This document shows, one piece after another, positions 2,559 to 21,886 of a stretch of 32,000 nt of DNA; positions within the stretch are counted from its first letter, which is position 1, and every line of letters starts with the position of its first letter. The stretch comes from Promethearchaeota archaeon (GTDB lineage: Archaea > Asgardarchaeota > Lokiarchaeia > Sigyniarchaeales > Promethearchaeaceae). The position numbers were made by a program, and so were the translations under genes. The stretch lies in NCBI GenBank assembly GCA_016933055.1, contig JAFGBS010000001.1, forward strand, positions 271,550 through 303,549, given 5' to 3'. Under the pieces are notes generated by a model. That model was not told the origin of the DNA. It did not search any database and saw only the letters and a list, made by a program, of their open reading frames with translations.

Positions 2559-3227
2559 ATGAGAATTTTAGTTGTATCTGACCTCCATTTAGGGAATGGT
2601 AGTAAGAGTGATGACTTTGGATACGGGAGGGAAACTTTTGAGAGAGAAGCCAGATTTTTGGAATTTGTTGAATCCCAGAATCCCGACAGAGTCTATTTAA
2701 ATGGAGATATATATGAATTATGGCAAGCTCGTTGGAAAAAAATAAAAAAAGCACATGAAAAATTAGTTAAAGTGTTTGAAAATGACCCGAAATATATATA
2801 CATCGTTGGAAATCATGATTTTAATTTAACTGGTCTTTATTCCGATGAAATTCGGACAAAATCTGGAAAGCGTGTCATAATTGCACATGGTTTCACTGCA
2901 GATCCTTGGATGAACAATGTATTCACTAGAACCTTAATTTGGTTTATAGGAGGATTAGAACGGTTAATTTCTCCAAATATCGATTTATGGCCCCATATGT
3001 TACGTCGATCAGGTGAGAAATCCATATTAAAAAAACGACAGACAAAGTATGCCGAGAAACTCCTTAAAACCTATGATATTTGTATCTTAGGCCATACTCA
3101 TTACCTCGATATCGATACAAATGACGTAGGCAGGATTTATGCAAACACTGGAACTTGTCAAACTGGAAAACTACAAGGAATTTTATTGGATACAGAAACT
3201 GATGAGATTAGAATAGTAGAAGGGTGA
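2559..3227 (+). CDS. Calcineurin-like metallophosphoesterase (LpxH/YbbF-like subgroup)
   Basis: All five motifs in order: SDLHLG, NGDIYE, GNHD, AHG, GHTH. Confidence 0.9.
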   Translation: MRILVVSDLHLGNGSKSDDFGYGRETFEREARFLEFVESQNPDRVYLNGDIYELWQARWKKIKKAHEKLVKVFENDPKYIYIVGNHDFNLTGLYSDEIRTKSGKRVIIAHGFTADPWMNNVFTRTLIWFIGGLERLISPNIDLWPHMLRRSGEKSILKKRQTKYAEKLLKTYDICILGHTHYLDIDTNDVGRIYANTGTCQTGKLQGILLDTETDEIRIVEG

Positions 3228-3464: not shown

Positions 3465-4457
3465 CTAAGGAGGATATGCTATAGTGTAAATATGAGCACC
3501 ACCTTCTTTAAGGGGTCCTTTTATAACTCTTTCCAATAATTTCTTGTCTTTCTGACTTAATTCATCAACTGGAGGAAGTTTACCTGGGGGAAATTTCTCA
3601 AGAATCTCGTTAACAAGTTTTTCCATATAATCAAGCAATGCATTCACACCTCCCTCAGCTTTTTTGGCATCTCCTTTGGTAGGACTTCCGACATTACCTT
3701 CTGGATATGCGGCGAATTCTACGGGACCCATTCCCACTTGTCCATACCATTTTATAGGCAACATATAAGCATTTCCTGCTTTATCTACATGCCCGTCAGA
3801 GAAATATCCTCGGGGTTCCGTGTCATCAGCATTTTCAATTTCAATCATTTCAGGAAAAAGGGCAAGACTGTAAGATGTTTCGCATTCATCTGCATGAATA
3901 AAGGGAGTTTCAAATTGACCAGTGGAAGGAAGACCGTATTTTTCTGCAGTTTTTTTATCTCGAATATGGGGATAAATTGCATGATACCAATTTAAATTGA
4001 TGAAGATCCCAGGCACTTGGTATCTTTTCGCAAATTCATGAATAGCAGAAGGAATCACGTATTCTTGTCCATGCCCATTGAGAAGAATTTGTTTTCGAAA
4101 TCCCATATTCCACAATCCCGCCATAATCGCACGAACATTTCCCTTAAAATGATTTTCTGGTACCAATACGGTTCCTGGAAGCCCCATATGATGAAAGGGA
4201 TGAGAACCATACCATACAGGTTCTGCTACAGTGCATCCTGTTTTCTCTGCAATCATTTCAGCCATTCGAGTTACTAAAAAGGTATCTTCACCAATACAAG
4301 CTGCACCTCCATGGTTTTCAGTTGAACCCAACGGTATGATAATGATGTCGTTTTTCTTAAGCCTATCTTGAATTTGCTTGATAGACATTGTTTGTAGATA
4401 AATCCCTGCGGGTTTATCCATTACCGCTCCTTTCGGAGGAAGATTCCATTTTGTCAT
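3465..4457 (-). CDS. iolN: Creatininase-family amidohydrolase, 3-dehydro-scyllo-inosose hydrolase (IolN-like)
   Basis: Creatininase motifs GSTENHG, GED, NGHG, HADECETS. It lies beside iolM/iolO/iolG-like genes, as in the Thermotoga maritima inositol locus (recalled). Confidence 0.88.
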   Translation of the reverse strand: MTKWNLPPKGAVMDKPAGIYLQTMSIKQIQDRLKKNDIIIIPLGSTENHGGAACIGEDTFLVTRMAEMIAEKTGCTVAEPVWYGSHPFHHMGLPGTVLVPENHFKGNVRAIMAGLWNMGFRKQILLNGHGQEYVIPSAIHEFAKRYQVPGIFINLNWYHAIYPHIRDKKTAEKYGLPSTGQFETPFIHADECETSYSLALFPEMIEIENADDTEPRGYFSDGHVDKAGNAYMLPIKWYGQVGMGPVEFAAYPEGNVGSPTKGDAKKAEGGVNALLDYMEKLVNEILEKFPPGKLPPVDELSQKDKKLLERVIKGPLKEGGAHIYTIAYPP

Positions 4458-4563
4458 TTTTTTCCACCAATATAATTTATCAATATTTAAGTTGATATGA
4501 GATCATTTTATCGACATTAAAATTCGATCTTTAAGATTAAATGAAAATTCGTAGGTTTTTAAA
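4458..4563. promoter_or_regulatory. Divergent promoter region between iolN and iolM
   Basis: 106-bp AT-rich gap between divergent starts. Inverted repeat TATCAA(4478-4483)-N8-TTGATA(4492-4497) surrounds a TTTAA box. GGTGG lies just upstream of the iolN ATG on the minus strand. Confidence 0.45.
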
Positions 4564-5742
4564 ATGAAAACAGTTCGATTATATGCGAGTTGGGATCCAA
4601 AGCCAGCATTCAAGCTGGGAAATAAAGATATTTCTGGAAAATTAACCTACTTAGGTTCACAAGTTTGGAGAAATCCAGAATTAAGGATTGAGGATGTTCC
4701 AATACCCACAATTAAACCAAATGAGGTACTAATCGAAGTAAAACGCTGTGGAATATGTGGATCGGATGTCCATATGTATCAGATAAATGAAGATGGATAT
4801 ATATGGTATCCCGGATTAACGGCTTTCCCGTGCACTTTGGGTCATGAATTTGCTGGTGTTGTAGCAAAGGCAGGTAATGAAGCTATCAATAAACGAACAA
4901 ACAAACGATTTGAGGAGGGGGAACCCGTTACTGTTGAAGAAATGGTTTGGTGTGGACAATGTAAACCCTGTTGTGATGGCTATCCCAATCATTGTGAAGC
5001 CCTCCAAGAAATAGGTTTTTCCATAGATGGTGCATATGCAAAATATATTGCAGCTCCCGCAAAACTCTGCTGGTCTCTTAAGAAACTCGAGGGAAAATAC
5101 CAAGACATATTTATGAACGGATCACTAGTGGAACCCACGAGTGTAGCATATAACGCAGTTATAGAACGTGGAGGGGGAATTCGTCCAGGAGAGAATGTCG
5201 TTATTTTAGGAGCAGGACCAGTTGGAATTGCTGCAACTGCAATCCTAAAACGCGCTGGGGCATCTGTGGTACTTGTCTCCGAACCAAATCCGCATCGGGC
5301 TGCGATGGCAAAAAAAATGGGAGCAGATTATACAATCAATCCTGCAGAAGAAAATTTTGTAGATAAAGTGAAGGAATGTACAGATAATGAAGGAGCAGCT
5401 CTTTATCTGGAAGCCACTGGATTGCCACATATTGTAACTGATGATATTCAAAACTGTATCTGGGAAACAAAATCGGTGAATTCTACTGTGGTTATTGTAG
5501 CTCGAGCGGATCAGAGAATGCCTTTAATGGGTGAAGTATTCCAGGTACGTAGAGGAAAAATTGTGGGTGCTCAAGGTCATTCGGGCCATGGAACCTTTCC
5601 AAACGTAATTTCCTTGATGGGTTCTGGTATGGATATGAGTCCTATGATCACAAAAACCATAAAACTGGAAGAAGTACCCGAAAATCTTAAACTGTTACAA
5701 ACTGATCGAGAGAACTGCAAGATAAGTGTAAAAATGGATTAA
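4564..5742 (+). CDS. iolM: Zn-dependent medium-chain dehydrogenase, scyllo-inosose 3-dehydrogenase (IolM-like)
   Basis: CGICGSDVH, GHEF, structural-Zn CGQCKPC..C and GAGPVG. The distinctive N-terminus (WDPKPAFKLGNKDISGKLTYLGSQVW) and GHSGHGTFP closely follow my recollection of T. maritima IolM. Confidence 0.92.
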   Translation: MKTVRLYASWDPKPAFKLGNKDISGKLTYLGSQVWRNPELRIEDVPIPTIKPNEVLIEVKRCGICGSDVHMYQINEDGYIWYPGLTAFPCTLGHEFAGVVAKAGNEAINKRTNKRFEEGEPVTVEEMVWCGQCKPCCDGYPNHCEALQEIGFSIDGAYAKYIAAPAKLCWSLKKLEGKYQDIFMNGSLVEPTSVAYNAVIERGGGIRPGENVVILGAGPVGIAATAILKRAGASVVLVSEPNPHRAAMAKKMGADYTINPAEENFVDKVKECTDNEGAALYLEATGLPHIVTDDIQNCIWETKSVNSTVVIVARADQRMPLMGEVFQVRRGKIVGAQGHSGHGTFPNVISLMGSGMDMSPMITKTIKLEEVPENLKLLQTDRENCKISVKMD

Positions 5743-6557
5743 AAAATATTCGAAATATATTCTGAGGATTGTTTAGCAACACTTTCGAATGATGGTTTCA
5801 TGATCGCCTCGATACTAAAGAATCCACCATAGCTATTATTAAATAATGTATGAATTATTTTTTCATAATCTATTTCCCCTGCTTTCATTGCTCTACGATC
5901 AGGTCCTGCAAAATGGACATGATGAATATAAGGTGCATATTTTTCCAGATTTTGATAGAAGGATTCACTATCTTCTTCTAAATAGACATGAAAGGAATCA
6001 ATCATTGCGAAGGTGCTAGATAAATTCACTTCTTGCAACAGATCAACCACTTCAGATAACGTGTGCAAAAAATCAATCTCAAATTGATTAATTGGTTCTA
6101 TTACCAATTCGATATTGTATTTTTCTGCAATTTCATCCACAAGACTAAGGGATTTCTTAAAGAGAGTTATTTCTGATTCTTGATTTTGATTGTAAGATCT
6201 TCTTCCCCTAATTAAACCTAAAATTACTTTTGGGTTTCCAATTAACTCACTGGCTAATTTACAATATAGATCCATGCGTTTGATGGCTTTTTCTCGCATT
6301 TTGTCGTCAATAGCACTTAAAGAATATCCATAGCGAAGAAATGTACTTCCCGTACCGATTGCTGAAATTTTCATATTATAACTTTCTAAATACGCATTGA
6401 TTTTATCAACAGGAATATCTTCGGGTCTTAATAGTGCCAATTCAACTCCCGTATAGTCAAGATCCTTTAGAAAGTCAAATTTGGCTTTTATGGTTTCATC
6501 AAACTTGTTTAAGAAATTACTGTCAATTCCAATGACGATGCTTAGAGGTGTTTTCAA
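5739..6557 (-). CDS. iolO: Sugar-phosphate isomerase/epimerase TIM barrel, 5-keto-L-gluconate epimerase (IolO-like)
   Basis: TTG start. ISAIGTG, GLIRGRR, IEPINQFE, DSFH, HVH and SIEA carry the D-tagatose-epimerase-family E/D/H/E metal set. Context supports IolO. Confidence 0.72.
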   Translation of the reverse strand: MKTPLSIVIGIDSNFLNKFDETIKAKFDFLKDLDYTGVELALLRPEDIPVDKINAYLESYNMKISAIGTGSTFLRYGYSLSAIDDKMREKAIKRMDLYCKLASELIGNPKVILGLIRGRRSYNQNQESEITLFKKSLSLVDEIAEKYNIELVIEPINQFEIDFLHTLSEVVDLLQEVNLSSTFAMIDSFHVYLEEDSESFYQNLEKYAPYIHHVHFAGPDRRAMKAGEIDYEKIIHTLFNNSYGGFFSIEAIMKPSFESVAKQSSEYISNIF

Positions 6558-6644
6558 TTCTATCAGTTTATGATTTGATCCAATACAATAAATAACTAAA
6601 GGTCAAACATTAAGATAATTTCATACTTCAAATATGATGAAAAT
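6558..6644. promoter_or_regulatory. Divergent promoter region between iolO and iolG
   Basis: 87-bp AT-rich gap between divergent starts, with a short inverted repeat TCATA(6621-6625)-N7-TATGA(6633-6637). Confidence 0.4.
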
Positions 6645-7667
6645 ATGTTGCAGAAAATTGTTGCTGGAATCATAGGAGCGGGGCGTATTGGTAAAATTCA
6701 TGCTGAAAATATCATGAATCATATCGAAAACGCCTACATTAAAACTATTGCAGACATAAAGATTGATCATTTAAAAAAATGGGCAGAGAATTTACGAATT
6801 TCACATCTCACGACAGATTACAGAGAAATCTTAGAGGATCCAGAAATTCAAGTGGTAATAATCTGTTCCTCTACTGATACCCATGTAAAATTTATTACTG
6901 AAGCTGCGAAAGCTGGAAAGCACATATTTTGTGAGAAACCAATCGATTTTGAGGTTTCGAGAATAAAAGATGCTTTGAATGCTGTAAAAGATGCAGGAGT
7001 TAAATTCATGATAGGATTTAACCGCAGATTTGATCATAATTTTCAACGAATGAAAAAAGCTGTGCAGAAGGGGGATCTCGGAGAACCACATATCATTAAA
7101 ATCTCATCTCGAGATCCAAATCCTCCTCCAATAGAATATCTCAAAGTTTCAGGAGGATTGTTTTTCGATATGGCAATCCATGATTGGGACATGTGTCGAT
7201 ATCTTTCAAACTCAGAAATCGCAGAAGTGTATGCTCAAGGTGCCGCATTTAATGATCCCGAAATAAGTAATATTAACGATATTGATACGGCAGTCACTTT
7301 GTTGAAATCCAAATCGGGAATCATGTTTATAATTGATAATTCACGAAAAGCAGTATATGGATACGATCAACGAGTTGAGATTTTTGGATCTAAAGGAATG
7401 ATTCTAAATTATAATGATACTATTAACAACGTCGAAATTTATTCAGAGAACTCAATTGCAAGAGATAAAATCCCCTATTTCTTTTTGGAAAGGTACAGGG
7501 ATTCTTATATTGTTGAAATGCGAGAATTATTCGAATGCGTTCAAAACAATTCAGACCCGAGCGTGAGTGGTGTAGACGGACTTCAAGCTGTGTTGATTGC
7601 AAAAGCAGCTTCACTATCCATGAGGGAAAACCGTCCAGTTAAATTAAGTGAAATAGAAGACAGTTAA
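6645..7667 (+). CDS. iolG: Gfo/Idh/MocA oxidoreductase, myo-inositol 2-dehydrogenase
   Basis: GAGRIG, CEKP, GFNRRFD, SRDP, DMAIHDWD, YGYDQRVE. Confidence 0.9.
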   Translation: MLQKIVAGIIGAGRIGKIHAENIMNHIENAYIKTIADIKIDHLKKWAENLRISHLTTDYREILEDPEIQVVIICSSTDTHVKFITEAAKAGKHIFCEKPIDFEVSRIKDALNAVKDAGVKFMIGFNRRFDHNFQRMKKAVQKGDLGEPHIIKISSRDPNPPPIEYLKVSGGLFFDMAIHDWDMCRYLSNSEIAEVYAQGAAFNDPEISNINDIDTAVTLLKSKSGIMFIIDNSRKAVYGYDQRVEIFGSKGMILNYNDTINNVEIYSENSIARDKIPYFFLERYRDSYIVEMRELFECVQNNSDPSVSGVDGLQAVLIAKAASLSMRENRPVKLSEIEDS

Positions 7668-7757
7668 AAATCCATTTAATGATCGATAATTATCCTATAT
7701 TTTACGAAATTATTTAATCAATATAATTCGATACTTCTTAGCATAGAGGATAATCTT

Positions 7758-7764
7758 AAGGTGA
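7758..7764 (+). promoter_or_regulatory. Archaeal-type Shine-Dalgarno (AAGGTGA) of the PHP gene
   Basis: AAGGTGA ends 6 nt before the ATG at 7771. Confidence 0.55.
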
Positions 7765-7770
7765 TAATAA

Positions 7771-8784
7771 ATGAAGCGTGTTTGGTCAAAGATTTTGAAG
7801 AATTTTGGAATTTTTATGTTGATAGTAGTTATAATAATGGTACCATCGATCTTGCTTAGCGTTTATGGACCTAGGCAGTACAAATATGATGATAATAGCT
7901 TCGAATGGACCTATAGTGTACCCGAAGCGAGTGAATCCAACATCATATTTGATCAACATTCTCATACCAAATATTCAGACGGAATTCTAACGGTAAGACA
8001 AAATATTTTGTGGCATATTGCCCATGGATTTAACGCAATGGTTCTCACAGATCATAATAATCTGAGAAATTCAGATGATCTTCAAGAATTAGCGTTGGAA
8101 TATACAAGTGAATTTATTATTATCCAAGGAATGGAGTGGACAACAAATCGAATACATTTAAATTTCCTCGGAATTTCAGATTGGGATCTGAGGATCCCAT
8201 GGAATCCAAGCGATGCTCAAATTCAAGAGGCGATCAATGAAGCTCATTCACAAGGAGCTGTAGTAACGGTGAACCATATTCCATGGAGTCTAGAACGAAT
8301 GCCCAATCACCCTACTCGGCAACAACTACTCACATGGGGTGTTGATTACATCGAAATTGTAAACGGAGATGATTATGATATCGACTCAGACTCGTGGTGT
8401 AACAATACAGGAGGATTTGGCAGTATTACTGGAACAGATATGCACACTCCAATGAATGTAAAAGCATGGACTTTGATGAATACTACAGAGTTCACTGCTG
8501 ATGCGATTATGAACGAATTACGAGCTAGGAATACAACAATTATATATAACACAACAGGGTCGGTTGATTTATCTAAGGGTTATAATAATATATTGTATGA
8601 CATATTTAGTCCGTTTATCTACATTGGAGAATATTTCGAAAATTTCTATGCCAATCGGATTACAATCCCGTTCTTCTTCTCATATTTGATAGCTGGATTT
8701 GCAGGATATACTGCAATCCAATATGCTATTCAGAAATATAAAGAAAATAAGAAAAGAATACCAGAAAAAACTGAAAAAAAATAA
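7771..8784 (+). CDS. PHP-family phosphoesterase anchored by N- and C-terminal TM helices
   Basis: DQHSHTKYSDG, TDHN, GMEWT, VNH, GTDMH. Hydrophobic helices at both ends have basic flanks (MKRVWSKILK; QKYKENKKR). Sequons NNT and NTT x3. Confidence 0.88.
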   Translation: MKRVWSKILKNFGIFMLIVVIIMVPSILLSVYGPRQYKYDDNSFEWTYSVPEASESNIIFDQHSHTKYSDGILTVRQNILWHIAHGFNAMVLTDHNNLRNSDDLQELALEYTSEFIIIQGMEWTTNRIHLNFLGISDWDLRIPWNPSDAQIQEAINEAHSQGAVVTVNHIPWSLERMPNHPTRQQLLTWGVDYIEIVNGDDYDIDSDSWCNNTGGFGSITGTDMHTPMNVKAWTLMNTTEFTADAIMNELRARNTTIIYNTTGSVDLSKGYNNILYDIFSPFIYIGEYFENFYANRITIPFFFSYLIAGFAGYTAIQYAIQKYKENKKRIPEKTEKK

Positions 8785-8816
8785 ATAAAACAAAACCATA
8801 CGAGTGTAAGGTAAGG

Positions 8817-9068
8817 ATTTTCTAATCAACTGGCACCCTACTTCATTCTATAGTCTTTTTCTCATAGCACTACGCTAAAAAGCCTTTCTGAAGTGCATAG
8901 AAAGGTGCTTTTTATCGTAGGTGCACCTAAACCCACTAAGCCTATCGTAGATAGGTGGAATTTTCAAAAAATTACGGTTCTGACGTTTTGCGATAAATTA
9001 CGTTAAAAAGAAGTGGATTATGTTACATTCGGATCCTTAAGAACTCAGATAGGTGTTGATTAGTAAAT
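8817..9068. other. Hairpin-dense intergenic element bounded by an inverted repeat (element A)
   Basis: CTAATCAAC (8822-8830) and GTTGATTAG (9055-9063), extending to 13/14 bp. 13-bp stem 8877-8913, perfect palindrome TAGGTGCACCTA 8918-8929, hairpin CCTATC-gta-GATAGG 8941-8955. Confidence 0.4.
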
Positions 9069-9093
9069 TATACTCTCTTATTGTTGAGGAAAT

Positions 9094-9381
9094 TCACTTA
9101 ATTTTGAAATTTTGTTTGAAATGTAAAACTGAAACAATCTTTATTGAGTTTTCAGAGAACAAGTAAATAATTTGATAACTATCAACGAAAATTTCTCTTA
9201 ATTGTTTGGATTTATCTTCTGGAACGATTCTACCGATCTGTGGGAAATTCTTAAGTAGTTCAATTTTTTCATCAATTCTTTCTTTTAGAATATAACAATA
9301 ATCAGATTTCTGCAATTCATAATATTCCAAGATTTCTTCTAACTTCTGAAGTGCAGGTGCAGTCCAGATTAGCGTGACCAT
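9094..9381 (-). CDS. Type II toxin, RelE/ParE family
   Basis: 95 aa. LIWTAPALQKLEEI, FPQIGR, REIFVDSYQIIY and IVSVLH match the ParE/RelE pattern. Overlaps the upstream small gene by 13 nt. Confidence 0.85.
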   Translation of the reverse strand: MVTLIWTAPALQKLEEILEYYELQKSDYCYILKERIDEKIELLKNFPQIGRIVPEDKSKQLREIFVDSYQIIYLFSENSIKIVSVLHFKQNFKIK

Positions 9382-9554
9382 CGTTTCAACCTTTCAGCAG
9401 CATCTTCTTCAGAAATTAAATCTCCTTTTCGTATTGCATCCAATCCAATCTTTATATTTTGTTGAACGTATATTTCGTAAAGAATATCTTCCAAAGTAGC
9501 GTCGTCGGGTAGGGATTTGAGTATTGATTCTACTGTCTCTTTTGCAGAAACCAT
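9369..9554 (-). CDS. Putative cognate antitoxin (61 aa)
   Basis: Small gene directly upstream of and overlapping the toxin. LPDDATLEDILYEIY...GLDAIRKGDLISEEDA..RL..W is typical of small ParE-associated antidotes. Confidence 0.75.
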   Translation of the reverse strand: MVSAKETVESILKSLPDDATLEDILYEIYVQQNIKIGLDAIRKGDLISEEDAAERLKRWSR

Positions 9555-9687
9555 AAGATAATCAATTCAACAAAACTAAAAAATATGTGGTGTGAAGATG
9601 AAATCATGGATTATTTATTTTTTCAGAAAAATAATCGGCACAGGTTATTTTGGTATCAGTTGTTCGTAACACACATCTACGAGTTTT

Positions 9688-9849
9688 ATGATTCGGGAAA
9701 CAGAGAAAATGATGATCGAATGGGATGACATACTTGTCGTGAAAGTTCCAGAGAAAAAAAATAATAGGGATATGGTGCAATTGTACCTTGAAGCATTTCA
9801 GGTAGCAGAGAAGAATGGCTTCGCTCTCAAAAAGGATCTGGGGGGCTAA
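9688..9849 (+). CDS. Possible small protein (53 aa, MIRETEKMMIEWDDILVVKVPEKK...)
   Basis: Hand-translated ATG-to-TAA ORF below the track cutoff. It lies upstream of and co-directional with the 9880 frame. No family recognised. Confidence 0.3.
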   Translation: MIRETEKMMIEWDDILVVKVPEKKNNRDMVQLYLEAFQVAEKNGFALKKDLGG

Positions 9850-9879
9850 AAAATCGTATCCCTGAAGGAGAAATATAGT

Positions 9880-10596
9880 ATGTGGGTTCTAACACCATTG
9901 TTTGGAACATTTTTTGGTTTCATCTTCCTTACGGGTTTTTTGGTTGGGTATCCTTGGATAGGGAAACTGACACTAAAAAAACTATGGCTGAATTAGCTAT
10001 TGAGTAGTTTACGAGCCGTTCTCTTTTCAATTTTTGCTTATTATGCACTTTTAATGCTAGATACAATTGTAAAGATTCTCGGATTAGGTATATTAGGATA
10101 TGGAAATATTTGGTTTCAATCTGCAGGATTGATCTTAATGTTTGTATTAGGTATTTTCTTTTTATTTGTGGCTGTATTTAATTTACCCACTTATCAAACG
10201 CTATTTTCATTCTTGTGTATATTAGTTTTTTGCATCTATTTTTTCGAGTTCCATCTTTCAACATTTTTCATCGGAGAAAGAGAGGTATTGACAAAGACAC
10301 CATTCATTACTGTTGCAATCATGCTAGGATCGAACCTTTTGACTTTTCCCCTCCGTATATTACGTTATAGAAACGATTAAACGTTGGAATTTAAAACCAT
10401 ATGGGATATCTCGGAAAAAGTCAAAAAATTCATTAATTTCAAGAGCGTTTTGATACTATGGATATTTTTTATGATTGAATCCATATTTCAACTCGAAGTT
10501 CTATCCATTTTGTATTGGTTTGGTTTTCTCTAGCTTATTTCAGACAAAATGAATCTTATCACCCCATTCTCTAACAAATTAGAAAACAAAAAATGA
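9880..10596 (+). pseudogene. Multi-pass membrane protein gene interrupted by in-frame stops
   Basis: GAAGGAG (9864-9870) precedes ATG 9880. One hydrophobic frame continues to TGA 10594-10596 with internal TAG 9994, TAA 10378 and TAG 10531. The track's 10000..10380 ORF is the middle piece. Confidence 0.55.
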
Positions 10597-10702
10597 AATT
10601 AATAAGAATATGAGGATTAAAAGATATGAAACCATTAGTTTTTGGATCAATCGGTAAAATGGATAAAGAAGGAAGAAGAAGAAGAAAAAAGATGCAATAA
10701 AA

Positions 10703-11152
10703 ATGAATGAGGAATATAAAGGAGATTTGTTAGTTTCGGCAATTAAACACAGACAATCTAATGTAGTGAGAGAATTGCTTTCCGATGGAGTGGATCCTAG
10801 CAAGTTTGTGAACCGGGAATTACCTTTGAATATAGCAATCGAAAATGGGGATGTCGAGATGGTAAAAATATTGCTAGAACACGGAGTCAATTGTAATCCT
10901 CAAGTATTTTATCCCCTCTATCCACTACGTATTTGCGTGGATCTTGTAATCAAATCTAAAAATTTGGATGAGGAAAATCCTTATGTAATTATACTTCAAT
11001 TACTAATAAAAAATGGATCTGATGCAAAAAAGTTGGTGGATGCTAACTATTCTGAAAAAAGTCTTTCTCCTGTAAGTGGACTATCTACTTTACTCAGACG
11101 CTACGGTTGGTACGATATTTTTGAACGAGTATCTCATGGTGGTCCACCATGA
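10703..11152 (+). CDS. Ankyrin-repeat protein (about 3 repeats)
   Basis: LLVSAIKHRQSNVVRELLSDGVDP; LPLNIAIENGDVEMVKILLEHGVNCN; degenerate third repeat ending IILQLLIKNGSD. Confidence 0.82.
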   Translation: MNEEYKGDLLVSAIKHRQSNVVRELLSDGVDPSKFVNRELPLNIAIENGDVEMVKILLEHGVNCNPQVFYPLYPLRICVDLVIKSKNLDEENPYVIILQLLIKNGSDAKKLVDANYSEKSLSPVSGLSTLLRRYGWYDIFERVSHGGPP

Positions 11153-11186
11153 ATTTTCCAATTTTACTACAGATCACCAGATTCGT

Positions 11187-11284
11187 GGTTTCCAAATTAG
11201 GTGAAGTGGTGTTAACCTCGTGTCAATGCTGGGATTCAACCCCACTTTAGGTTTTATCAATACCATAAATTTTATTGGGAAACC
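11187..11284. ncRNA. Possible structured RNA element between the ankyrin gene and proS
   Basis: Nested stems: GGTTTCC 11187-11193 with GGAAACC 11278-11284, and TGAAGTGGTGTT 11202-11213 with AACCCCACTTTA 11238-11249 (one mismatch, one G-U). Confidence 0.3.
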
Positions 11285-11327
11285 GATTTTTGATTAAAAA
11301 AACGCACTTAATTCGGTTTGAACATCA

Positions 11328-12869
11328 ATGGGAAAACAAGACATAGAACAGGATGAGATGAAAAAACTTCCTAATAAGGAAGAAAATTTCATTGATTGGC
11401 TAAACGAAGTTCTTCTTAGGACTGATGTATTAGATTATCGCTATAATCTTAAAGGATGTGGCGTATGGAAAGGTTATGGATTCAAGTTAAGGAAAAACAT
11501 TTTATCAATCCTTAGAAATTTGTTAAACAATACACCAGTTCCCCATGAGGAATACATGTTCCCATTGCTTGTACCAGAACCACAATTCATGAAAGAAGCT
11601 GAGCACGTGAAAGGTTTTGAGAATGAGGTTTACTGGGTTACTCATGGTGGATTAACAGAACTTGATATAAAACTTGCCCTCCGTCCCACTTCTGAAACAG
11701 CAATTTATCCTATGTTTGCGTTATGGATACGTTCCCACACAGATTTACCGCTTAAAACATATCAGATTGTAAATACATTCCGTTGGGAAGGAAAAAATAC
11801 CCGCCCGATGTTACGAGTAAGAGAAATAACCACCTTCAAAGAAGCACATACCGTGCATGCAACGGCTGAAGATACAGAACAGCAAATAGCGGAAGCTGTT
11901 AAATTGTACTCGAATCACTTCAACACCTTGGGAATTTCATATGTAGTGAACAAAAGACCAAAATGGGACACATTCCCAGGTGCTGATTACAGTATCGCAT
12001 TCGATGCTATTATGCCCGCGAATCATAAAACTTTACAAATCGGGACGGTACACAATCTTGGTCAGAATTTTGCGAAAACTTTTGACATCACATTTGAGAA
12101 CCTAGAAAAAGAAAGACAATACGTTTACCAAACGTGTTATGGAATAAGTGAAAGAGGAATTGCAGCTCCTATTGCTTTACATGGAGATGACAGAGGATTA
12201 GTGTTACCTCCAAACATTGCTCCAATCCAGATAGTAATTGTCCCCATTATCTTCAAAAATAAGGAAGAACTTGTGCAAGAAGAAGTAAAAAAAATAGTAA
12301 AAATCCTAAGGAGACATTTTACCGTAGTAGTGGATGATCGAGGGATTAAACCAGGTTCTAAATTCTTTCATTGGGAAGAAAAAGGTGTACCTATTCGTAT
12401 AGAAATTGGTCCTCAAGATGTAGAAAAAAGGCAAATCACCATTGTTAGACGGGATACGGGCGAGAAGTTTACCAGATCTTCCGCAACAACCAAAGAAATC
12501 GTGCAACAGATCAAGTCATTATTTAAACAGATATTTGAGGAAATGGCTCTTAAAGTGGCAGAAGATACAAAATCTCGAATTTTAGTAACAGAGGATATTA
12601 ATGAAGCTTACCAATGGCTAGAGGATGGGAAAGGAATCGCAGAAATTCCATTCTGTGGTTCTCAAGAATGTGCGTCCGATATTGAAAAACGAGTCGATGG
12701 CTTAAGGTTTCTAGGAACACCTGTTAGATATTTGAATTATATAGAGAAACCAAGTAAAAGAATGAAATATGGTGAGATGAATCAATTCACGCGAGAAAAA
12801 AAGGAGATATTCTGCCCAGTATGTTCGAAAAAGGTGAACCAGTATTGGACTATAGCTAGAAGTTGGTAA
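11328..12869 (+). CDS. proS: Proline--tRNA ligase, archaeal/eukaryote type
   Basis: LRPTSET, FRWE...[18 protein letters not shown] and CYGISER, followed by the anticodon-binding domain and a C-terminal Zn domain (FCGSQEC, CPVC). Start could be 11358. Confidence 0.97.
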
Positions 12870-12881
12870 TTTTTTTAATAC

Positions 12882-14408
12882 CTAAACCTCAGGCCATTGT
12901 AACCATTTTCGCAGATGGGTAAATCTCTTCCAATTGCTTGGATCTACTTCCTCCAATTCCGCATATGGTATCCCCAGCGCATCCAGAAATTTCAGTAACT
13001 GGGGAATTCTCTTTTTGAAAAGGGCATAATTCATCAAATTAGGCTTTGTCCATGCTACCTCAGCTGTTGCAAAGAGTCTTGGGAATACTTGCCAACCTAA
13101 TCGTTCCAAATTGGGTACCCACTCTGTCCAGATTGGAGTTTCGACACCTATAATGCCAGACTCATAGGTTTTCACGGGATTCGGTACTGGTTCAAAATAG
13201 AACTTTCTCATTGGATGCATTAAATAATTATAATCAAGATAGGTTTTCCCAAAAGGACTCATCACAAATTTTCTACCTTTAGGAATGTATTTTTTAACTT
13301 TTTTTGGATTTCCCAACCACCATTGCACTATAGCATTTTTGTTAAGTGATTCCCCAAGAATTTCATTCCATCCGATGATACATTTTCCTTTGGATTCAAG
13401 ATATTTTGCTACTCGATTGGTGAAGTACACTTGTAGATCCCGTTCATCTTTCAGATTTTCTTTTTTAATCCGTTCTTGACAATATGGACATGCTTTCCAC
13501 CTTGTTTTAGGTGCTTCATCGCCGCCGATATGAATGTATTTTGAAGGAAAAATCTCTATTACTTCATCCAACACTCCTTCAAGAAAGTCGAACGTTGTTT
13601 CTTTCCCTGCACAATAGATGTCAGCATAAATACCAGGTTTTGTTTTGACTTCTATCTGTTCCCCCTTGCATGAAAGATTTGGGTAGGATGAAATTGCAGC
13701 AGAAGAATGACCCGGGATGTTTATCTCTGGGATCACTTCTACATATCGTTTTTTTGCGTATTGAATAACGTCTCGGATTTCCTCTTGAGTATAGAATCCA
13801 CTATGAGGTTCTCCGCGGAACTTTTTGGAAAGATGAGAGCCAATTTTTGTATCTTTACGTTTAGAACCGATCTCCGTTAACTTGGGATAGTTTTTGATTT
13901 CGATTCGCCATCCCTGGTCTTCGGTTAAATGAAGATGGAGTTTATTCATTTTGACGAGACAAATGGCATCAATTAGTTTTTTTATGGTTTCTACGGGTTG
14001 ATAATGCCTACAGACATCAAGCATAAATCCTCTCCACTCAAATCGGGGTTTATCTATAATTTTCACTCCATCTACAAACCACTTTCCTTTTTTTTCGTAC
14101 AATAATTGACGTAGAGTTTGAATTCCATAAAATAATCCCTCTTCACTCGAAGCACTGATAATGATGGAGATTTCACTCACTCGGAGAATATATCCCTCAC
14201 ATTCCAGTTCGAGAGATTCATCTAAGAAAAGTTCAATTTTAGAATCAGTAGAAGTCTGTTCTAATATAATGCCGGTATCAAGAGCTAAAGTTGTTTTTAA
14301 GTATTCAGCTAGATCGGATATAGTTGTATTTATTGATGTTTCTTTTGAGAAAGTAAAGACATTCTCATTTGTAATTATCTCTCGGGGTTGCGGAGTAATG
14401 ATATTCAT
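12882..14408 (-). CDS. Beta-N-acetylhexosaminidase, GH20
   Basis: GH20b domain (EGYIL, GLFYGIQTLRQL), DKPRFEWRGFMLDVCRH, HLHLTEDQGWR, catalytic HIGGDE. No signal peptide visible. Confidence 0.93.
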   Translation of the reverse strand: MNIITPQPREIITNENVFTFSKETSINTTISDLAEYLKTTLALDTGIILEQTSTDSKIELFLDESLELECEGYILRVSEISIIISASSEEGLFYGIQTLRQLLYEKKGKWFVDGVKIIDKPRFEWRGFMLDVCRHYQPVETIKKLIDAICLVKMNKLHLHLTEDQGWRIEIKNYPKLTEIGSKRKDTKIGSHLSKKFRGEPHSGFYTQEEIRDVIQYAKKRYVEVIPEINIPGHSSAAISSYPNLSCKGEQIEVKTKPGIYADIYCAGKETTFDFLEGVLDEVIEIFPSKYIHIGGDEAPKTRWKACPYCQERIKKENLKDERDLQVYFTNRVAKYLESKGKCIIGWNEILGESLNKNAIVQWWLGNPKKVKKYIPKGRKFVMSPFGKTYLDYNYLMHPMRKFYFEPVPNPVKTYESGIIGVETPIWTEWVPNLERLGWQVFPRLFATAEVAWTKPNLMNYALFKKRIPQLLKFLDALGIPYAELEEVDPSNWKRFTHLRKWLQWPEV

Positions 14409-14550
14409 AGGTTTTGTAGGGTTTAGTGAAATTTATTATTTTGTAGAACGAAATCCTTAGTTGTTTTCTATTCTCTACATCATTTAAAAATAGAAATATA
14501 CAAAAATAAGTGAGGCAATATCTAAGTAGCATAATAATTAGGTTGATAGT

Positions 14551-15534
14551 ATGATCGTAAAAACAACACCAGAATATTTCGAATTATTAAATAAAGCCGT
14601 CGCCCGGGAAATTCAAGTAAGTGCACAATATATGCTCCAACATAGTGCGATGGAAAAATTAAAACGAAAAGTAATCAAGGAAAACTATCTTCTTGACACA
14701 ACCACCTATGATGAGTTAGGGGAACTACTTGAAAAAATGGCAATCGAGGAAATGAAACACCTGGCAGATATTATGGAACGGATCTATTTCCTTGGTGGAG
14801 AAGCCATAACAAAGCCTACTAAGATTACAATCGGTAAATCCATGAAAGAATTCATGAAATTGGGAGAGAAAGCGGAGATTGAAGCTCTCGAACTCTATCG
14901 TGAAGTTTTAAAAATGGCTAGAAACCTCGGTGATGATGCAACTTTCAAACTTTTCCGTCAGATCTATAAGGATGAGGAAGAACATCTGCTGAAATTCCAA
15001 GAATATCTAGATATTGAAGATGAAATTCCAGAGATCGAAAATGAACCACCAGAAAACGAGTGGCGGAAGATATTCACAGCTGATTACATCAAAATGTTAA
15101 ATAAAGCTCTTGCAGCTGAAATGTCTGCCATAATTCAATATACAAATCAACATGAAAAAGCAAGTAAGGAAACTTTACGAAAGAAAAAAGCACCTTTAGA
15201 ATTGCTTAAGGGATCAAATAAAGCCGAAGTTATTTCCGGGATGTTAAAACCTATATTCATGGAAGAAATGCAACATTTGGAAGATATTGCGGAGAGAATC
15301 TATGAAATCGATTTTGAGGCCGTAGCAGATATTGATCCTTTACCAAAAATTGGTGAGGGACCTGATGATTGGATCATTTTGGATCGTGAAGCAGAAGATT
15401 ATGCAATTATTTTATACCGAAGCATTGTGAAAAAGGCTACTGAAATAGGGGATATCAAAACAAAACGTATGTTTGAGAAAATCCTTGAGGAAGAGGAAAA
15501 CCATTATTGGCAATTCGATGACTATGTTCTCTAG
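14551..15534 (+). CDS. Tandem bacterioferritin-like di-iron protein (two fused four-helix bundles)
   Basis: Each half has E-x6-Y, EEMxH, E and E-x2-H (REIQVSAQY/EEMKH/EIEA/DEEEH and AEMSAIIQY/EEMQH/EAED/EEENH), joined by an acidic Pro-containing linker. Confidence 0.9.
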   Translation: MIVKTTPEYFELLNKAVAREIQVSAQYMLQHSAMEKLKRKVIKENYLLDTTTYDELGELLEKMAIEEMKHLADIMERIYFLGGEAITKPTKITIGKSMKEFMKLGEKAEIEALELYREVLKMARNLGDDATFKLFRQIYKDEEEHLLKFQEYLDIEDEIPEIENEPPENEWRKIFTADYIKMLNKALAAEMSAIIQYTNQHEKASKETLRKKKAPLELLKGSNKAEVISGMLKPIFMEEMQHLEDIAERIYEIDFEAVADIDPLPKIGEGPDDWIILDREAEDYAIILYRSIVKKATEIGDIKTKRMFEKILEEEENHYWQFDDYVL

Positions 15535-15575: not shown

Positions 15576-17117
15576 TTAATCGATTTCCGGGTATTCCAAT
15601 CTTTTAATTCCGTCTTGGTCAAGGACAATTCGTACTTTTTTCAGATAAGGGATCTTGGTCGTAGTTTTATTAAGTGTTCGAACGCGGAAAATTAAATTAA
15701 TATGATAGATTTTGTATTGTTTGATATATTCTACATCATCTGTATCCTTATTCCATATGGGGTATTCTTTAAAGGGGTCATCAGCATATCGGATGATGTT
15801 TTTAATATTAAATCGTATTATATCATGAATGTCTCCTTCTCGTTCGTGAATTTTAAGTAATTTGAAGGCATCTAACTGCATTATCTTCTTGTATTTAAAC
15901 ACATTCTCTAAATTTTCTTGTTTTTCAATTGTCAATTGGTTTCTTTGCCGAGATTTTGCAATTTCCTGAGGAATTTCGTTCTCTTCTAAAAATCGCATTG
16001 TTTCTCGCATGCTGCCTATGTGGGTTCTTTCAAAAGGGTCTCGGATCTGATGAGTTCGATCCGAAATAATTATCCTCAACGTACGATTGGATACAAGCTT
16101 AATTAAAGATTTGATACGGTCTTTAAATACATAAATAACCACTGCCGCAAGAAAAAAAGGGGTTGAATATTCCTGAAATGGCTCTAATAGTAGCAAAGTT
16201 AACAAAACCGAGACTACCATAGCTAACCCAGCAGCGACTGAATAGAATAACTGTTTTAACCTTTTTTCTCTCTTTTTCCTTTTTTGTTCCAAATATAACA
16301 CTCTTTGAGTGAATTTTTTTAATAACCCCTCTCCATATTCAAAACTCTCACCAGTTTTGATCAAATCCAGTGATAAAGGTGACATTATTTCCTTTCTGTC
16401 AGCCCTTGTCGATTCAATGCACTGAATCGTTTTATTCTTAATTTTGTCCGATAGTAAAGAATCGAATTTTGCAAGGAATTTGTTAAATCTTATTTCGATT
16501 TGTACATGTATGAATTGTGATACATAATGAAAGGCATTTAGAATCTCATTATCAATTTGATTCGTTTCCATTTCCTGAGTGAGTTGATTGATTTTAGTTA
16601 ACAATGGGGAAATGAAAGAAAGAAATTCAAGATATTCTTGTTCATTTTTGTTCATTTTTGATGAATCGAGTTCAATTTTATTCCCAAGATTTTCCAAATT
16701 ATCACGAACACATGCTCTAACCATTGCTCCAAATAATCTTATTTCGTACAAAATTTGGGATTTGGTGCGATTCTGAGAATTTATTAACGTTCTGATGCGA
16801 TTTAAGGGAGAAAGTGTGTTATTGGGATTAATCAATGCTGAAATTGATAATTCGGGAGTTTTATAACGCATATAAAGATTTAAATCACTATAAAAATCAA
16901 ATTGAGTGTATGTTTCCTCGTTTATATGAAGTGATTTCGGTAGAAAACAAAACATTTCAAGTAAAAAACCGTTTTTCCTTTGCGATGGCTCAATAGTATA
17001 ATCGAGCTTTACTTCAAAATTATATCGATCGTGTCTTTCAAATTCAGGACTTTCAATTTCATGCTCAAAATGTTCAATTTTATCCGATCCCGACATACTA
17101 AGATAACAAGGAACCAC
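15576..17117 (-). CDS. Uncharacterised 513-aa protein with a central two-helix membrane hairpin
   Basis: Long ORF. TM pair YSVAAGLAMVVSVLLTLLLL and FFLAAVVIYVF lies between two large soluble domains. The true start may be the ATG of MSGSDKIE. Confidence 0.8.
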   Translation of the reverse strand: MVPCYLSMSGSDKIEHFEHEIESPEFERHDRYNFEVKLDYTIEPSQRKNGFLLEMFCFLPKSLHINEETYTQFDFYSDLNLYMRYKTPELSISALINPNNTLSPLNRIRTLINSQNRTKSQILYEIRLFGAMVRACVRDNLENLGNKIELDSSKMNKNEQEYLEFLSFISPLLTKINQLTQEMETNQIDNEILNAFHYVSQFIHVQIEIRFNKFLAKFDSLLSDKIKNKTIQCIESTRADRKEIMSPLSLDLIKTGESFEYGEGLLKKFTQRVLYLEQKRKKREKRLKQLFYSVAAGLAMVVSVLLTLLLLEPFQEYSTPFFLAAVVIYVFKDRIKSLIKLVSNRTLRIIISDRTHQIRDPFERTHIGSMRETMRFLEENEIPQEIAKSRQRNQLTIEKQENLENVFKYKKIMQLDAFKLLKIHEREGDIHDIIRFNIKNIIRYADDPFKEYPIWNKDTDDVEYIKQYKIYHINLIFRVRTLNKTTTKIPYLKKVRIVLDQDGIKRLEYPEID

Positions 17118-19375: not shown

Positions 19376-21886
19376 TTGTATCTAGAGAAAATGCGAAAAC
19401 GAATTATCAACATTTTGTGTGCAGGAAAAATCTTTGCTCTAATTATTGTTGCTTATGAGACATTGTTTTTAATTATGTTTTCTCATCTAGTGGATTTTGA
19501 AACTGGAATTCAATTTCTAAGATTATTTCGGTATGAATCATTCATTCCAACAGGATTTGGACCATTTCTAGCATGGTTAACTCCTCATGTGTTGATTTTT
19601 ATCGTCGTTTTCGGATTTTTTTGGTGGGATTGGGGAGAGGTGCCCAAATATATTGCAATAGGAGCCGTGATTGTTCTTAGCATTATGAATTCCATTTGGT
19701 TTGCATCCCTACTTCCGTTTTTTATGTGGATATTTCTGATCTATCTTTTAATACGAGTTCCCCCCATAGCATTTCGGAAATTATTTTACTTTGCGATAAA
19801 GAGGAAGAATACACCGCTCAGAATTTTGACTAAACAAATTCCGAGTTGGACACAACTACTGGGAATCATTCTCATTTTGCCATTATTCATCCCCAGTATT
19901 CCCTATATCACGGGTTCCTTGGAACAACCCGAACCTTATATTTGGAATTTGGAATATCACGGTGGAAATTTTACTGAGCGAAAATTACTTGCAGGTAATG
20001 ATAGTTTAACCTATGCTCCTTCAAGTCCCAATACACAATTCATTAACGTCTATTTAGGAAATCCAGTTGTAGAATCACAAATCCTAGGAGGATTATATAA
20101 AATCTATGGGGAAGATGGGGGAGATTTTGAAATGAATAAAGTCCTCCGCCTTCTATATCTAAATAATGTTACCGACGTACTTACTAATGAAACCCGTACA
20201 CTAATTGAAGGAGCTCTTTTATACGGTAAATATTGGGTTGACCAACAGGGAGTCTCAAATGGATTATATTGGACGGAAAATCACCAGATTGGATATCATA
20301 CCGCTGAATTATTATCGGGACAGATGTTCCGGGCGAGAACATTTAATCGTACTTTAATGACAGGAGAAGAACATATTGCTCATGCAGAGTATATGATTAC
20401 CAAATGGATTGATTGGCGAGCCCGATTTGGCTTTAGCGAATACCATAGTAATGTCTATTATGACATTGATTTTCGTGCTTTACTTAATCTTGTAGATTTT
20501 GCGGAAAACGCAACTATAGCGAATAAAGCTGCTATGCTATTAGATTTGATGAATTTTGATTTTGCAAATAACTATTTCAAGGATATCTATGCAATAGCCC
20601 ATGGCCGATGTTATGGGGAATCCAAAGTTGCCACGGTTACGGGTAGCTTTCAAAATAGAGATAGCATCGCAGATGCTGTATGGTTATGGCTCGGTATTGG
20701 AGGTTATAATGGGTGGGGAATTAGTACCACCGAAGCATTCATCCTAACTAGTACATACCAACCCTCATCGATTTTGGAGAAGATAGCACAAGATGCGAAG
20801 GTTTTCAATGAACATAAAGACAGAAACGGTATGAATGTAGATGAGGGTGAATCCTATGGGATTGAATATAACGAAGAAGATATCATGTATTGGTGGGGAA
20901 TGACGAACTACCTAGGTTCGGAAATCATTGAAACCACTTTTGACTATGTCGAAAAATACGATATTGATCCTGCACTTGTGTTCGGACCAGGAGTGATGAA
21001 TTATACCAGATTTGCGGCAAATCTTCGAGCTTTATCTTTATCCGAGTTTTCTTTATTAATGAAGGAATTTACAGAGGGAATCGCCCAAGAAGCGGCTAAT
21101 TTATACACTTATCGTACGTCATATTACCAGTTATCTGGATTACAAGACTACCAAAAAGGAAAAAATAGCGTACAAGAGCATATATGGCAAGCATCTTTGT
21201 CCAATAATGCATATATATTTACTAATGCACCTGGAGGGTTGAACTGGAAGGGTGGTCCGTTCATGGGAGGGTGGATGCCGCGGGGTGTATTCCATAAGAA
21301 TATCGGTGTAATCCAATACGACCATCGTCATGAAATTATAGGAGGAAAATTACTCGCACAGTTAGCAGATGCGGGATTAAATATGTTCACTGGCAACCGC
21401 CCGAAAAATCATGCTTATTTTCCAAAATGGGCATTCGATCAAGTGGTTTCGAAAGGAAGATGGACATTTGGTTCTAAAGATGGTGGATATGTGGCTTTGT
21501 TCTCTAAAAATCCGACGTTCTGGGCATCAGATTATGAATTAACAGCTCTTGGGGAGAAAAATGTCTGGATCGTGGAAATGGGGAGCGAATCAGAATATGC
21601 TTCTTTTGCTGATTTCATACAGCAAATTTTGTCAGCCCAAATAGATATTAAATCTGCAAGAATAGGATTCACAGTAAGTTATGACTCCCCCTCCCAAGGA
21701 TTAGCTTCTGTGGGGTGGGAGGGAGATTTTATTGTTAATGGCACCGTAATGGATTTGGAATATGAACGCTTTGAGAACAAATATGTGAGTACTGCTGGTT
21801 TTAACTCATTGGAGACTATTATCGAGTTTAATGGAGAGAAATTAACGCTAAATTTTGCGAATAACACGCGATTATATGAACCATGA
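19376..21886 (+). CDS. Membrane-anchored extracellular protein, possibly a heparinase II/III-like polysaccharide lyase fold
   Basis: About 4-5 N-terminal TM helices, then a helical region (WTENHQIGYHTAE, FSEYHSNVYY, HGRCY) and a beta-rich C-terminus. Many N-x-S/T sequons. The start may be ATG 19391. The fold call is inference. Confidence 0.75.
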   Translation: MYLEKMRKRIINILCAGKIFALIIVAYETLFLIMFSHLVDFETGIQFLRLFRYESFIPTGFGPFLAWLTPHVLIFIVVFGFFWWDWGEVPKYIAIGAVIVLSIMNSIWFASLLPFFMWIFLIYLLIRVPPIAFRKLFYFAIKRKNTPLRILTKQIPSWTQLLGIILILPLFIPSIPYITGSLEQPEPYIWNLEYHGGNFTERKLLAGNDSLTYAPSSPNTQFINVYLGNPVVESQILGGLYKIYGEDGGDFEMNKVLRLLYLNNVTDVLTNETRTLIEGALLYGKYWVDQQGVSNGLYWTENHQIGYHTAELLSGQMFRARTFNRTLMTGEEHIAHAEYMITKWIDWRARFGFSEYHSNVYYDIDFRALLNLVDFAENATIANKAAMLLDLMNFDFANNYFKDIYAIAHGRCYGESKVATVTGSFQNRDSIADAVWLWLGIGGYNGWGISTTEAFILTSTYQPSSILEKIAQDAKVFNEHKDRNGMNVDEGESYGIEYNEEDIMYWWGMTNYLGSEIIETTFDYVEKYDIDPALVFGPGVMNYTRFAANLRALSLSEFSLLMKEFTEGIAQEAANLYTYRTSYYQLSGLQDYQKGKNSVQEHIWQASLSNNAYIFTNAPGGLNWKGGPFMGGWMPRGVFHKNIGVIQYDHRHEIIGGKLLAQLADAGLNMFTGNRPKNHAYFPKWAFDQVVSKGRWTFGSKDGGYVALFSKNPTFWASDYELTALGEKNVWIVEMGSESEYASFADFIQQILSAQIDIKSARIGFTVSYDSPSQGLASVGWEGDFIVNGTVMDLEYERFENKYVSTAGFNSLETIIEFNGEKLTLNFANNTRLYEP

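Follow-up and report, generated by a model that had tools for sequence, protein, structure and literature searches.

Can an archaeon of the Asgard phylum feed on inositol, and are the genes that it would use its own? Eukaryotic cells typically contain inositol and its phosphates among their building blocks, and sediments are rich in both. What Asgard archaea, the closest known archaeal relatives of eukaryotes, live on has largely been guessed from genomes. The question is raised by a stretch of 32,000 nucleotides (the window; G000:C16:271550-303549, where G000 is the source genome) at the end of a 303,549-bp contig from a Promethearchaeota archaeon. Positions 3465-7667 of the window carry four adjacent genes that resemble iolG, iolM, iolN and iolO of Thermotoga maritima. 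Together they probably specify the oxidative reactions by which the Thermotoga-type pathway opens the inositol ring, as a stripped-down module which, judged from its sequences, belongs to the Asgard lineage itself.

The region consists of exactly four open reading frames (ORFs), all of which are intact, open, of full length and contiguous within 4.2 kb. In window coordinates, the features are:

3465..4457, minus strand: iolN, 3-dehydro-scyllo-inosose (diketo-inositol) hydrolase with a creatininase fold (330 aa; NF041098, Pfam Creatininase)
4458..4563, intergenic: 106 bp between the divergent iolN and iolM, AT-rich with TATA-like runs; presumed two-way promoter
4564..5742, plus strand: iolM, scyllo-inosose 3-dehydrogenase, a Zn-dependent medium-chain dehydrogenase (392 aa; NF041097, Pfam Zn-ADH)
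5739..6557, minus strand: iolO-like, putative 5-keto-L-gluconate 4-epimerase, a xylose-isomerase-like TIM barrel (272 aa; TTG start)
6558..6644, intergenic: 87 bp between the divergent iolO-like gene and iolG, AT-rich (sequence read directly)
6645..7667, plus strand: iolG, myo-inositol 2-dehydrogenase of the Gfo/Idh/MocA family (340 aa; TIGR04380)

The strands alternate (- + - +), and iolM and the iolO-like gene converge, with their 3' ends overlapping by 4 bp. The cluster therefore consists of two divergent gene pairs and not of one operon. A repeat search found no operator shared by the two intergenic regions, only short AT-rich chance matches, and no tRNA or Rfam element was found in the window. 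Two metatranscriptome runs of the source study, searched as contigs, gave no match and are silent on expression either way.

The proteins were scored against the NCBIfam equivalog models, whose cut-offs are 245 bits for IolN (NF041098), 450 for IolM (NF041097), 355 for IolG (TIGR04380) and 300 for IolO (NF041099). The first three models were passed over almost their whole length: IolN reached 495.5 bits (model positions 1-307 of 307), IolM 500.4 bits (1-386 of 389) and IolG 457.9 bits (4-330 of 330). Among 14 control genomes, the cut-off of the IolN model is passed by T. maritima alone, and the source IolN keeps all columns that are invariant in an alignment of 14 IolN sequences (A1). Solved structures in the PDB were compared in reciprocal style for IolM, the IolO-like protein and IolG (there is no PDB structure for the T. 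maritima IolN, TM0413), and in each case the top match was the T. maritima protein, namely TM0412, TM0416 and TM0414. IolM matched TM0412 (3IP1) with 587 bits over residues 2-388, and IolG matched TM0414 (3EZY) with 349 bits, followed by named inositol 2-dehydrogenases. The four assignments made in an initial annotation, which had only the DNA letters and their ORFs to go by, thus stand, except that the fourth protein scores below its cut-off and is filed here as IolO-like. Of the Bacillus-type route, IolE and IolC were looked for (IolD, IolB and IolJ were not) and neither was found. With the IolE model (TIGR04379, cut-off 290) the score of the IolO-like protein was as low as 29 bits, and with the IolC model (TIGR04382, cut-off 300) the best PfkB kinases of the source genome reached 116-140 bits.

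Rodionova et al. (2013, Environ Microbiol 15:2254; cited in PMC5931981) set out the Thermotoga-type pathway and its intermediates. By analogy, IolG would use NAD+ to oxidise myo-inositol, or an isomer close to it, and the scyllo-inosose formed would be oxidised by IolM to 3-dehydro-scyllo-inosose; IolN would open the ring by hydrolysis to 5-keto-L-gluconate, and the IolO-like epimerase would yield D-tagaturonate. The gene identities and their clustering are direct observations, and these substrates are predicted, the proteins being orthologous to T. maritima enzymes that have been characterised.

The host is a Loki-type Asgard archaeon (Promethearchaeota), because its 16S is archaeal and its ProS is closest to Promethearchaeota. 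The source genome, a metagenome-assembled genome (MAG) from a sediment metagenome, comprises 3.76 Mb in 36 contigs and is 91 % complete with 3.3 % estimated contamination. Its 16S scored 1461 bits on the archaeal small-subunit model, which outscored the related Rfam models. ProS, whose gene lies 3.7 kb from the iol cluster, has MAGs of Promethearchaeota/Lokiarchaeota as its nearest named relatives (61-64 % identity) and is 56 % identical to that of Promethearchaeum syntrophicum. The archaeal affiliation proposed by the initial annotation is borne out by both markers. In addition, parts of iolN and iolM recur without a mismatch on short contigs of a hot-spring metagenome from 2017, so a near-identical strain exists at a second site besides the source sediment.

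How common is such a module? A survey of 1,511 archaeal genomes in 2022 reported Bacillus-type iol homologues in five of them and described inositol degradation as 'restricted to Eubacteria' (PMC9430895); it screened the Bacillus-type route only, and Thermotoga is not mentioned. When we scanned 185,579 species genomes for IolN, relatives were found in 578. The best 80 of these 578 matches, whose loci were compared by grouping all their ORFs into clusters, are mostly MAGs of Asgard archaea and Bathyarchaeia, plus Chloroflexota, Actinomycetota, Bacillota, Aerophobetes and Armatimonadota. In a sample of 301 Asgard genomes drawn evenly from the phylum, 49 carry IolN, 45 of them in the sister family (f3; 45 of its 69 genomes) of the family of the source genome (f1), both families being Asgard and in the same order. 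Within f1 the source genome is the sole carrier among 14 genomes (0/13 of the others), and the six f1 genomes of the 301-genome sample were also without it. In one Lokiarchaeial family and among Bathyarchaeia, the Thermotoga-type module is actually common, and NCBI already annotates the Asgard IolN copies as '3-dehydro-scyllo-inosose hydrolase'. The rarity implied by the initial annotation is contradicted by these counts, and the source cluster is one more copy of a known, automatically annotated module, with modest added value. Among the papers covered by a literature search on inositol in Asgard archaea, Lokiarchaeia and Bathyarchaeia, none was found to describe the module in archaea.

Several of the carriers (L054, L060, L071, L075, L077, L087, L091 and L093) come from MAGs labelled Hermod-, Hod-, Thor- or Odinarchaeota, and their IolN proteins are nested at very short distances among those of Promethearchaeota. 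The submitter labels of that MAG series at NCBI look unreliable; by GTDB nearly all Asgard carriers fall into one family. The closest copy of the source IolN (81 % identity) is on contig JBHLKE010000039 of a Hodarchaeota-labelled MAG (L110). Apart from L110, the identity of the source IolN to the Asgard, Bathyarchaeia and bacterial copies is 62-69 %, with 63-69 % to f3 copies and 62-65 % to bacterial ones.

Several points speak against a working inositol pathway in this host. The IolO-like protein scored 192.6 bits against NF041099 (model positions 3-267 of 269), below the cut-off; it shares 47 % identity with the L110 copy vs 81-84 % for IolN and IolM, its terminal branch measures 0.75, and it may have lost part of its activity or taken on another one. 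Because promiscuity is frequent among Gfo/Idh/MocA dehydrogenases, the true cyclitol substrate of IolG is uncertain. No transporter was found within ~10 kb of the cluster, whereas f3 loci have a symporter between iolG and iolM. A search of the 91 % complete source genome gave no match to PF16257 for UxaE, to PF03786 for UxuA or to PF01232 for a Mannitol_dh-type UxuB/UxaB, and UxaA (altronate dehydratase homologue) was not found there either. About 9 % of the genome is lacking and the operon of its only Eda-type aldolase (see below) runs off the contig end. The link from the module to central metabolism is unproven, and the pathway, which the initial annotation had called complete, did not prove to be so, as UxaE, UxuA, UxuB and UxaA/UxaB were not found in the genome and the cluster is without a transporter.

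With respect to the IolO-like protein, the three other Asgard IolO copies tested also fall under the cut-off (213-237 bits), the source copy being the lowest. The runner-up NCBIfam model reached only 60.8 bits, and the top PDB match, TM0416 (2ZVR), scored 117 bits vs 44 for the next. When the protein was aligned to 2ZVR, a Glu, an Asp, a His and a Glu were all found conserved, at the presumed metal-ligand positions of the ketose-epimerase TIM barrel. The likeness of the source protein to TM0416, estimated from the alignment, is comparable to that of LguG of Luteolibacter sp. LG18, an IolO homologue 35 % identical to TM0416 which was experimentally shown to be a 5-keto-L-gluconate 4-epimerase (PMC12632266). 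Because LguG has that activity at such a distance, the expected epimerase activity of the source protein is plausible, although a protein that evolves this fast could also have changed its function.

Uptake and the fate of the product were then sought in the rest of the genome. Myo-inositol-1-phosphate synthase was not found in it, so the cell would have to take up any inositol from its surroundings. For growth on the module, this uptake would depend on a GPH or MFS symporter encoded away from the cluster; homologues of the f3 symporters with 35-43 % identity are encoded elsewhere in the source genome. Of the downstream genes that the initial annotation had listed, uxaE, uxuB, uxuA and a 2-keto-3-deoxygluconate (KDG) kinase at cut-off were not found in the genome and an Eda aldolase was present. 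None of the PfkB proteins of the source genome reaches a KDG-kinase cut-off. UxaE and UxuA of an f3 genome (G026), used in tblastn against the source genome, found nothing, and its UxuB, a short-chain dehydrogenase/reductase (SDR), gave only generic SDR matches of ~26-29 %. The Eda-type 2-keto-3-deoxy-6-phosphogluconate (KDPG)/2-keto-4-hydroxyglutarate (KHG) aldolase is the sole one in the genome and lies in a same-strand run (L106, G000:C2:343000-354017; 5835-10699, minus strand) with a lactonase-like metallo-beta-lactamase-type hydrolase, a 2-hydroxyacid (GhrB/PGDH-like) dehydrogenase, a 198-aa uncharacterised protein and a shikimate-dehydrogenase-like protein. This run may be a sugar-acid module. 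The genome also encodes two IlvD copies and three unassigned dehydratase-type proteins of the enolase superfamily, of which one lies next to a GPH symporter. The Pfam matches of these three are at C2:14513-15148, C28:15122-15784 and C6:146958-147626 of the source genome.

The gap below D-tagaturonate is not peculiar to the inositol genes. The source genome has a UxaC (497.5 bits, cut-off 387) at 7898-9295 of another locus (L122, G000:C15:82000-100000), and five f1 genomes including the source have UxaC without any known enzyme after it, so the gap is family-wide. Neighbours of this uxaC encode an S58 peptidase-family protein, a fumarylacetoacetate-hydrolase-family protein, a homologue of LarA-type nickel-pincer 2-hydroxyacid racemases/epimerases and a 1389-aa uncharacterised protein. 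If the module supports growth, a non-canonical lower pathway would be needed, for which the three enolase-superfamily dehydratases, the SDR and 2-hydroxyacid dehydrogenases, the PfkB kinases and Eda are candidates; the same route would also serve UxaC. We suggest only tentatively that the source genome and its UxaC-bearing f1 relatives might carry D-tagaturonate to central metabolites by an undescribed route without UxaE/UxuB/UxuA or UxaB/UxaA. If true, the breakdown of inositol (iol) and of hexuronates (UxaC) would meet there, and archaeal inositol feeding would be at hand. What is specific to the source genome is the sole copy found in f1, with four core genes only, a rearranged order, a fast-evolving epimerase and no recognisable importer in the cluster or product use, and the missing lower pathway could be sought cleanly in such a genome.

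The f3 genome G026 provides the best context evidence that the Asgard module leads to D-tagaturonate. In its locus L121 (G026:C28), positions 5364-14616 hold iolM, uxuB (SDR), uxuA, uxaC, uxaE and iolN on one strand, with iolO divergent. This locus is a fused inositol-plus-uronate catabolic operon, and its interleaved genes tie the module by context to D-tagaturonate. Among 12 f3 carriers, a UxaA-type dehydratase is present in 10 and UxaE together with UxuA in two (G023 and G026); a Mannitol_dh-type reductase was found in none of the 41 genomes searched.

Missing parts of this kind could also mean that the four genes are a stranded module, a remnant, inherited or gained from another Asgard lineage, which has been cut off from uptake and central metabolism and is drifting to loss, a fate that the other f1 genomes seem to have met already. 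The single carrier among the 14 f1 genomes, the absence of the symporter from the cluster, the rearranged gene order and the failure to find any known downstream enzyme would all fit, as would the long branch of the IolO-like protein with the lowest model score of the Asgard copies tested. Against decay, however, all four frames are intact, IolN and IolM keep 81-84 % identity to L110, the IolN columns invariant in A1 are retained, the aligned putative metal-ligand positions of the IolO-like protein are kept, and the GC content at third codon positions (GC3) is fully adapted to the genome. Moreover, the L110 lineage, which is otherwise unrelated, has kept the four genes in this bare arrangement as well, and this speaks for their being selected as a unit. 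We therefore regard decay as unlikely.

It is similarly improbable that the pathway-like set acts on something other than myo-inositol, be it another cyclitol (scyllo-, chiro- or methylated inositol), towards a non-catabolic product, or with the IolO-like protein epimerising another keto acid. The divergence of the IolO-like protein and its score below the equivalog cut-off are in line with this explanation. Furthermore, 5-keto-L-gluconate can go either to D-idonate or to D-tagaturonate (PMC12632266), and the poor Km of TM0415 for myo-inositol (PMC5931981) shows that some of the substrates assigned in the T. maritima operon are still in question. On the other hand, IolG, IolM and IolN pass curated equivalog cut-offs, IolM is very close to the characterised TM0412, and in G026 the module lies in one locus with the gene for UxaE, an enzyme that acts on D-tagaturonate. 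The oxidation of inositol to D-tagaturonate thus remains the reading that we prefer for the four genes.

For the origin of the cluster, an IolN tree of 43 rows (LG+C20 with posterior mean site frequencies, PMSF; unrooted) was drawn, and three clean groups were observed: bacteria (support 97/90), Bathyarchaeia/Thermoproteota (99/95) and Asgard archaea. The source and L110 proteins are sister to the f3-type Asgard clade with a support of 100/97, and a second tree of 80 rows agrees. Placing source and L110 with the sampled bacteria was rejected by the approximately unbiased (AU) test (p 0.0099), as was placing them with Bathyarchaeia (p 0.0085). In the IolM tree the two sit inside an all-archaeal clade, and in the IolO tree the archaea stand apart from the bacteria, with the source on its long branch. 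GC3 of the four genes (0.26-0.29) is within the range of the genome (0.297 +/- 0.032), and a compositional signal of recent transfer was looked for in it and not seen.

The initial annotation had considered the genes to be probably acquired from bacteria. The cluster is missing in the rest of f1, the pathway was first described in a bacterium, and the identities of the source IolN to f3 and to bacterial copies are near equal, all of which speaks for a recent horizontal acquisition. Such an acquisition is nevertheless very unlikely in view of the IolN and IolM trees, the AU test against the bacteria and the typical GC3, and the neighbouring genes on the 303-kb contig are Asgard as well. By these sequence comparisons the cluster is made up of the Asgard lineage's own gene versions, with no recent bacterial import. 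An ancient inter-domain transfer is beyond the reach of this unrooted tree, whose bacterial part is small, query-biased and without Thermotogota. Within Asgard archaea, the module may have been present in the ancestor and then been lost throughout the rest of f1, or the source may have received it from the L110 lineage. The possibility that binning or assembly brought in the cluster from a different organism, for which one could point to a MAG with estimated contamination, can be dismissed almost entirely, as the cluster lies on a long contig at 3.7 kb from a Promethearchaeota-like ProS, matches the genome in composition and recurs in zero-mismatch short contigs of a second metagenome.

The iol genes of the window are bracketed by a metallophosphoesterase (2559-3227, plus strand) and a PHP-domain (CehA/McbA-like) metallohydrolase (7771-8784, plus strand). 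These were considered as inositol-scavenging parts and found to be unsupported, since neither adjoins iol genes in L110 or in the 80 named loci; the PHP-domain protein is a member of an uncharacterised, mostly archaeal cluster. Directly after proS there is a GH20 beta-N-acetylhexosaminidase gene (12882-14408, minus strand; 357 bits), which points to glycan scavenging. A protein of 327 aa with two ferritin-like stretches (Pfam Ferritin, 126 bits), about twice the 142-position domain model, is encoded at 14551-15534 (plus strand). At 22882-24054 there is a gene for a beta-propeller protein that weakly matches oligogalacturonate lyase; it lies ahead of, and on the strand opposite to, the gene at 24582-27599 (plus strand) for a 1005-aa protein with 16 ELWxxDGT repeats (TIGR04534, 714 bits). 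Two large ORFs, 15576-17117 (minus strand, 513 aa) and 19376-21886 (plus strand, 836 aa), have no Pfam or NCBIfam match.

Among known systems, the T. maritima operon TM0411-TM0416 has the same four enzyme families clustered (IolG TM0414, IolM TM0412, IolN TM0413 and IolO TM0416). It differs from the source cluster, which is in an archaeal host, on alternating strands, and without the IolR regulator, the TM0415-type kinase and the ATP-binding cassette (ABC) importer; T. maritima completes its route via UxaE, UxuB and UxuA, the enzymes not found in the source genome. In the pathway of Luteolibacter LG18, D-tagaturonate is finished by a non-UxaB reductase, altronate dehydratase, KDG kinase and KDPG aldolase (PMC12632266). 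That pathway is bacterial and is entered from L-glucose/L-galactose and not from inositol, and its altronate dehydratase has no homologue that we found in the source genome.

The same four genes are found together in most Asgard and Bathyarchaeia loci, in bacterial loci and in L110. The order in Bathyarchaeia is N> M> M> O>. In f3 (e.g. L032, L054, L073 and contig 28 of G026) it is G< (GPH or MFS symporter)> M> (Hsp20>) O< N> with small conserved genes beyond it, and the source cluster, read on the minus strand, is G< O> M< N>. The f3 and source loci share the four genes, and their IolN and IolM proteins belong to the same Asgard clades, whereas the source cluster is rearranged and is without the symporter and the small genes of uncharacterised function. 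In L032, L054, L073 and about 40 others of the f3 loci, those downstream of iolN encode a 164-aa zinc-ribbon protein, 118-aa and 266-aa uncharacterised proteins and one to four SCP2-like proteins, those upstream of iolG encode uncharacterised proteins of 175 aa and 180 aa, and Hsp20 is often between iolM and iolO; these small conserved neighbours are absent from the source genome. The outer f3 neighbours (aminotransferase, radical SAM proteins, M48 and U32 peptidases, HhH-GPD and acetyl-CoA hydrolase) are unrelated housekeeping genes and were ruled out as downstream enzymes.

The closest relative of the source cluster is L110, with identities of 81 % for IolN, 84 % for IolM, 62 % for IolG and 47 % for IolO. 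It differs by two inserted genes (an HHH_5 protein and a 309-aa uncharacterised protein), and its flanks are unrelated to those of the source. Its order is the same G< O> M< N>, also without a transporter, and because L110 shares both the order and the absence of the symporter, the stripped-down, rearranged form is a lineage trait and not an accident of assembly.

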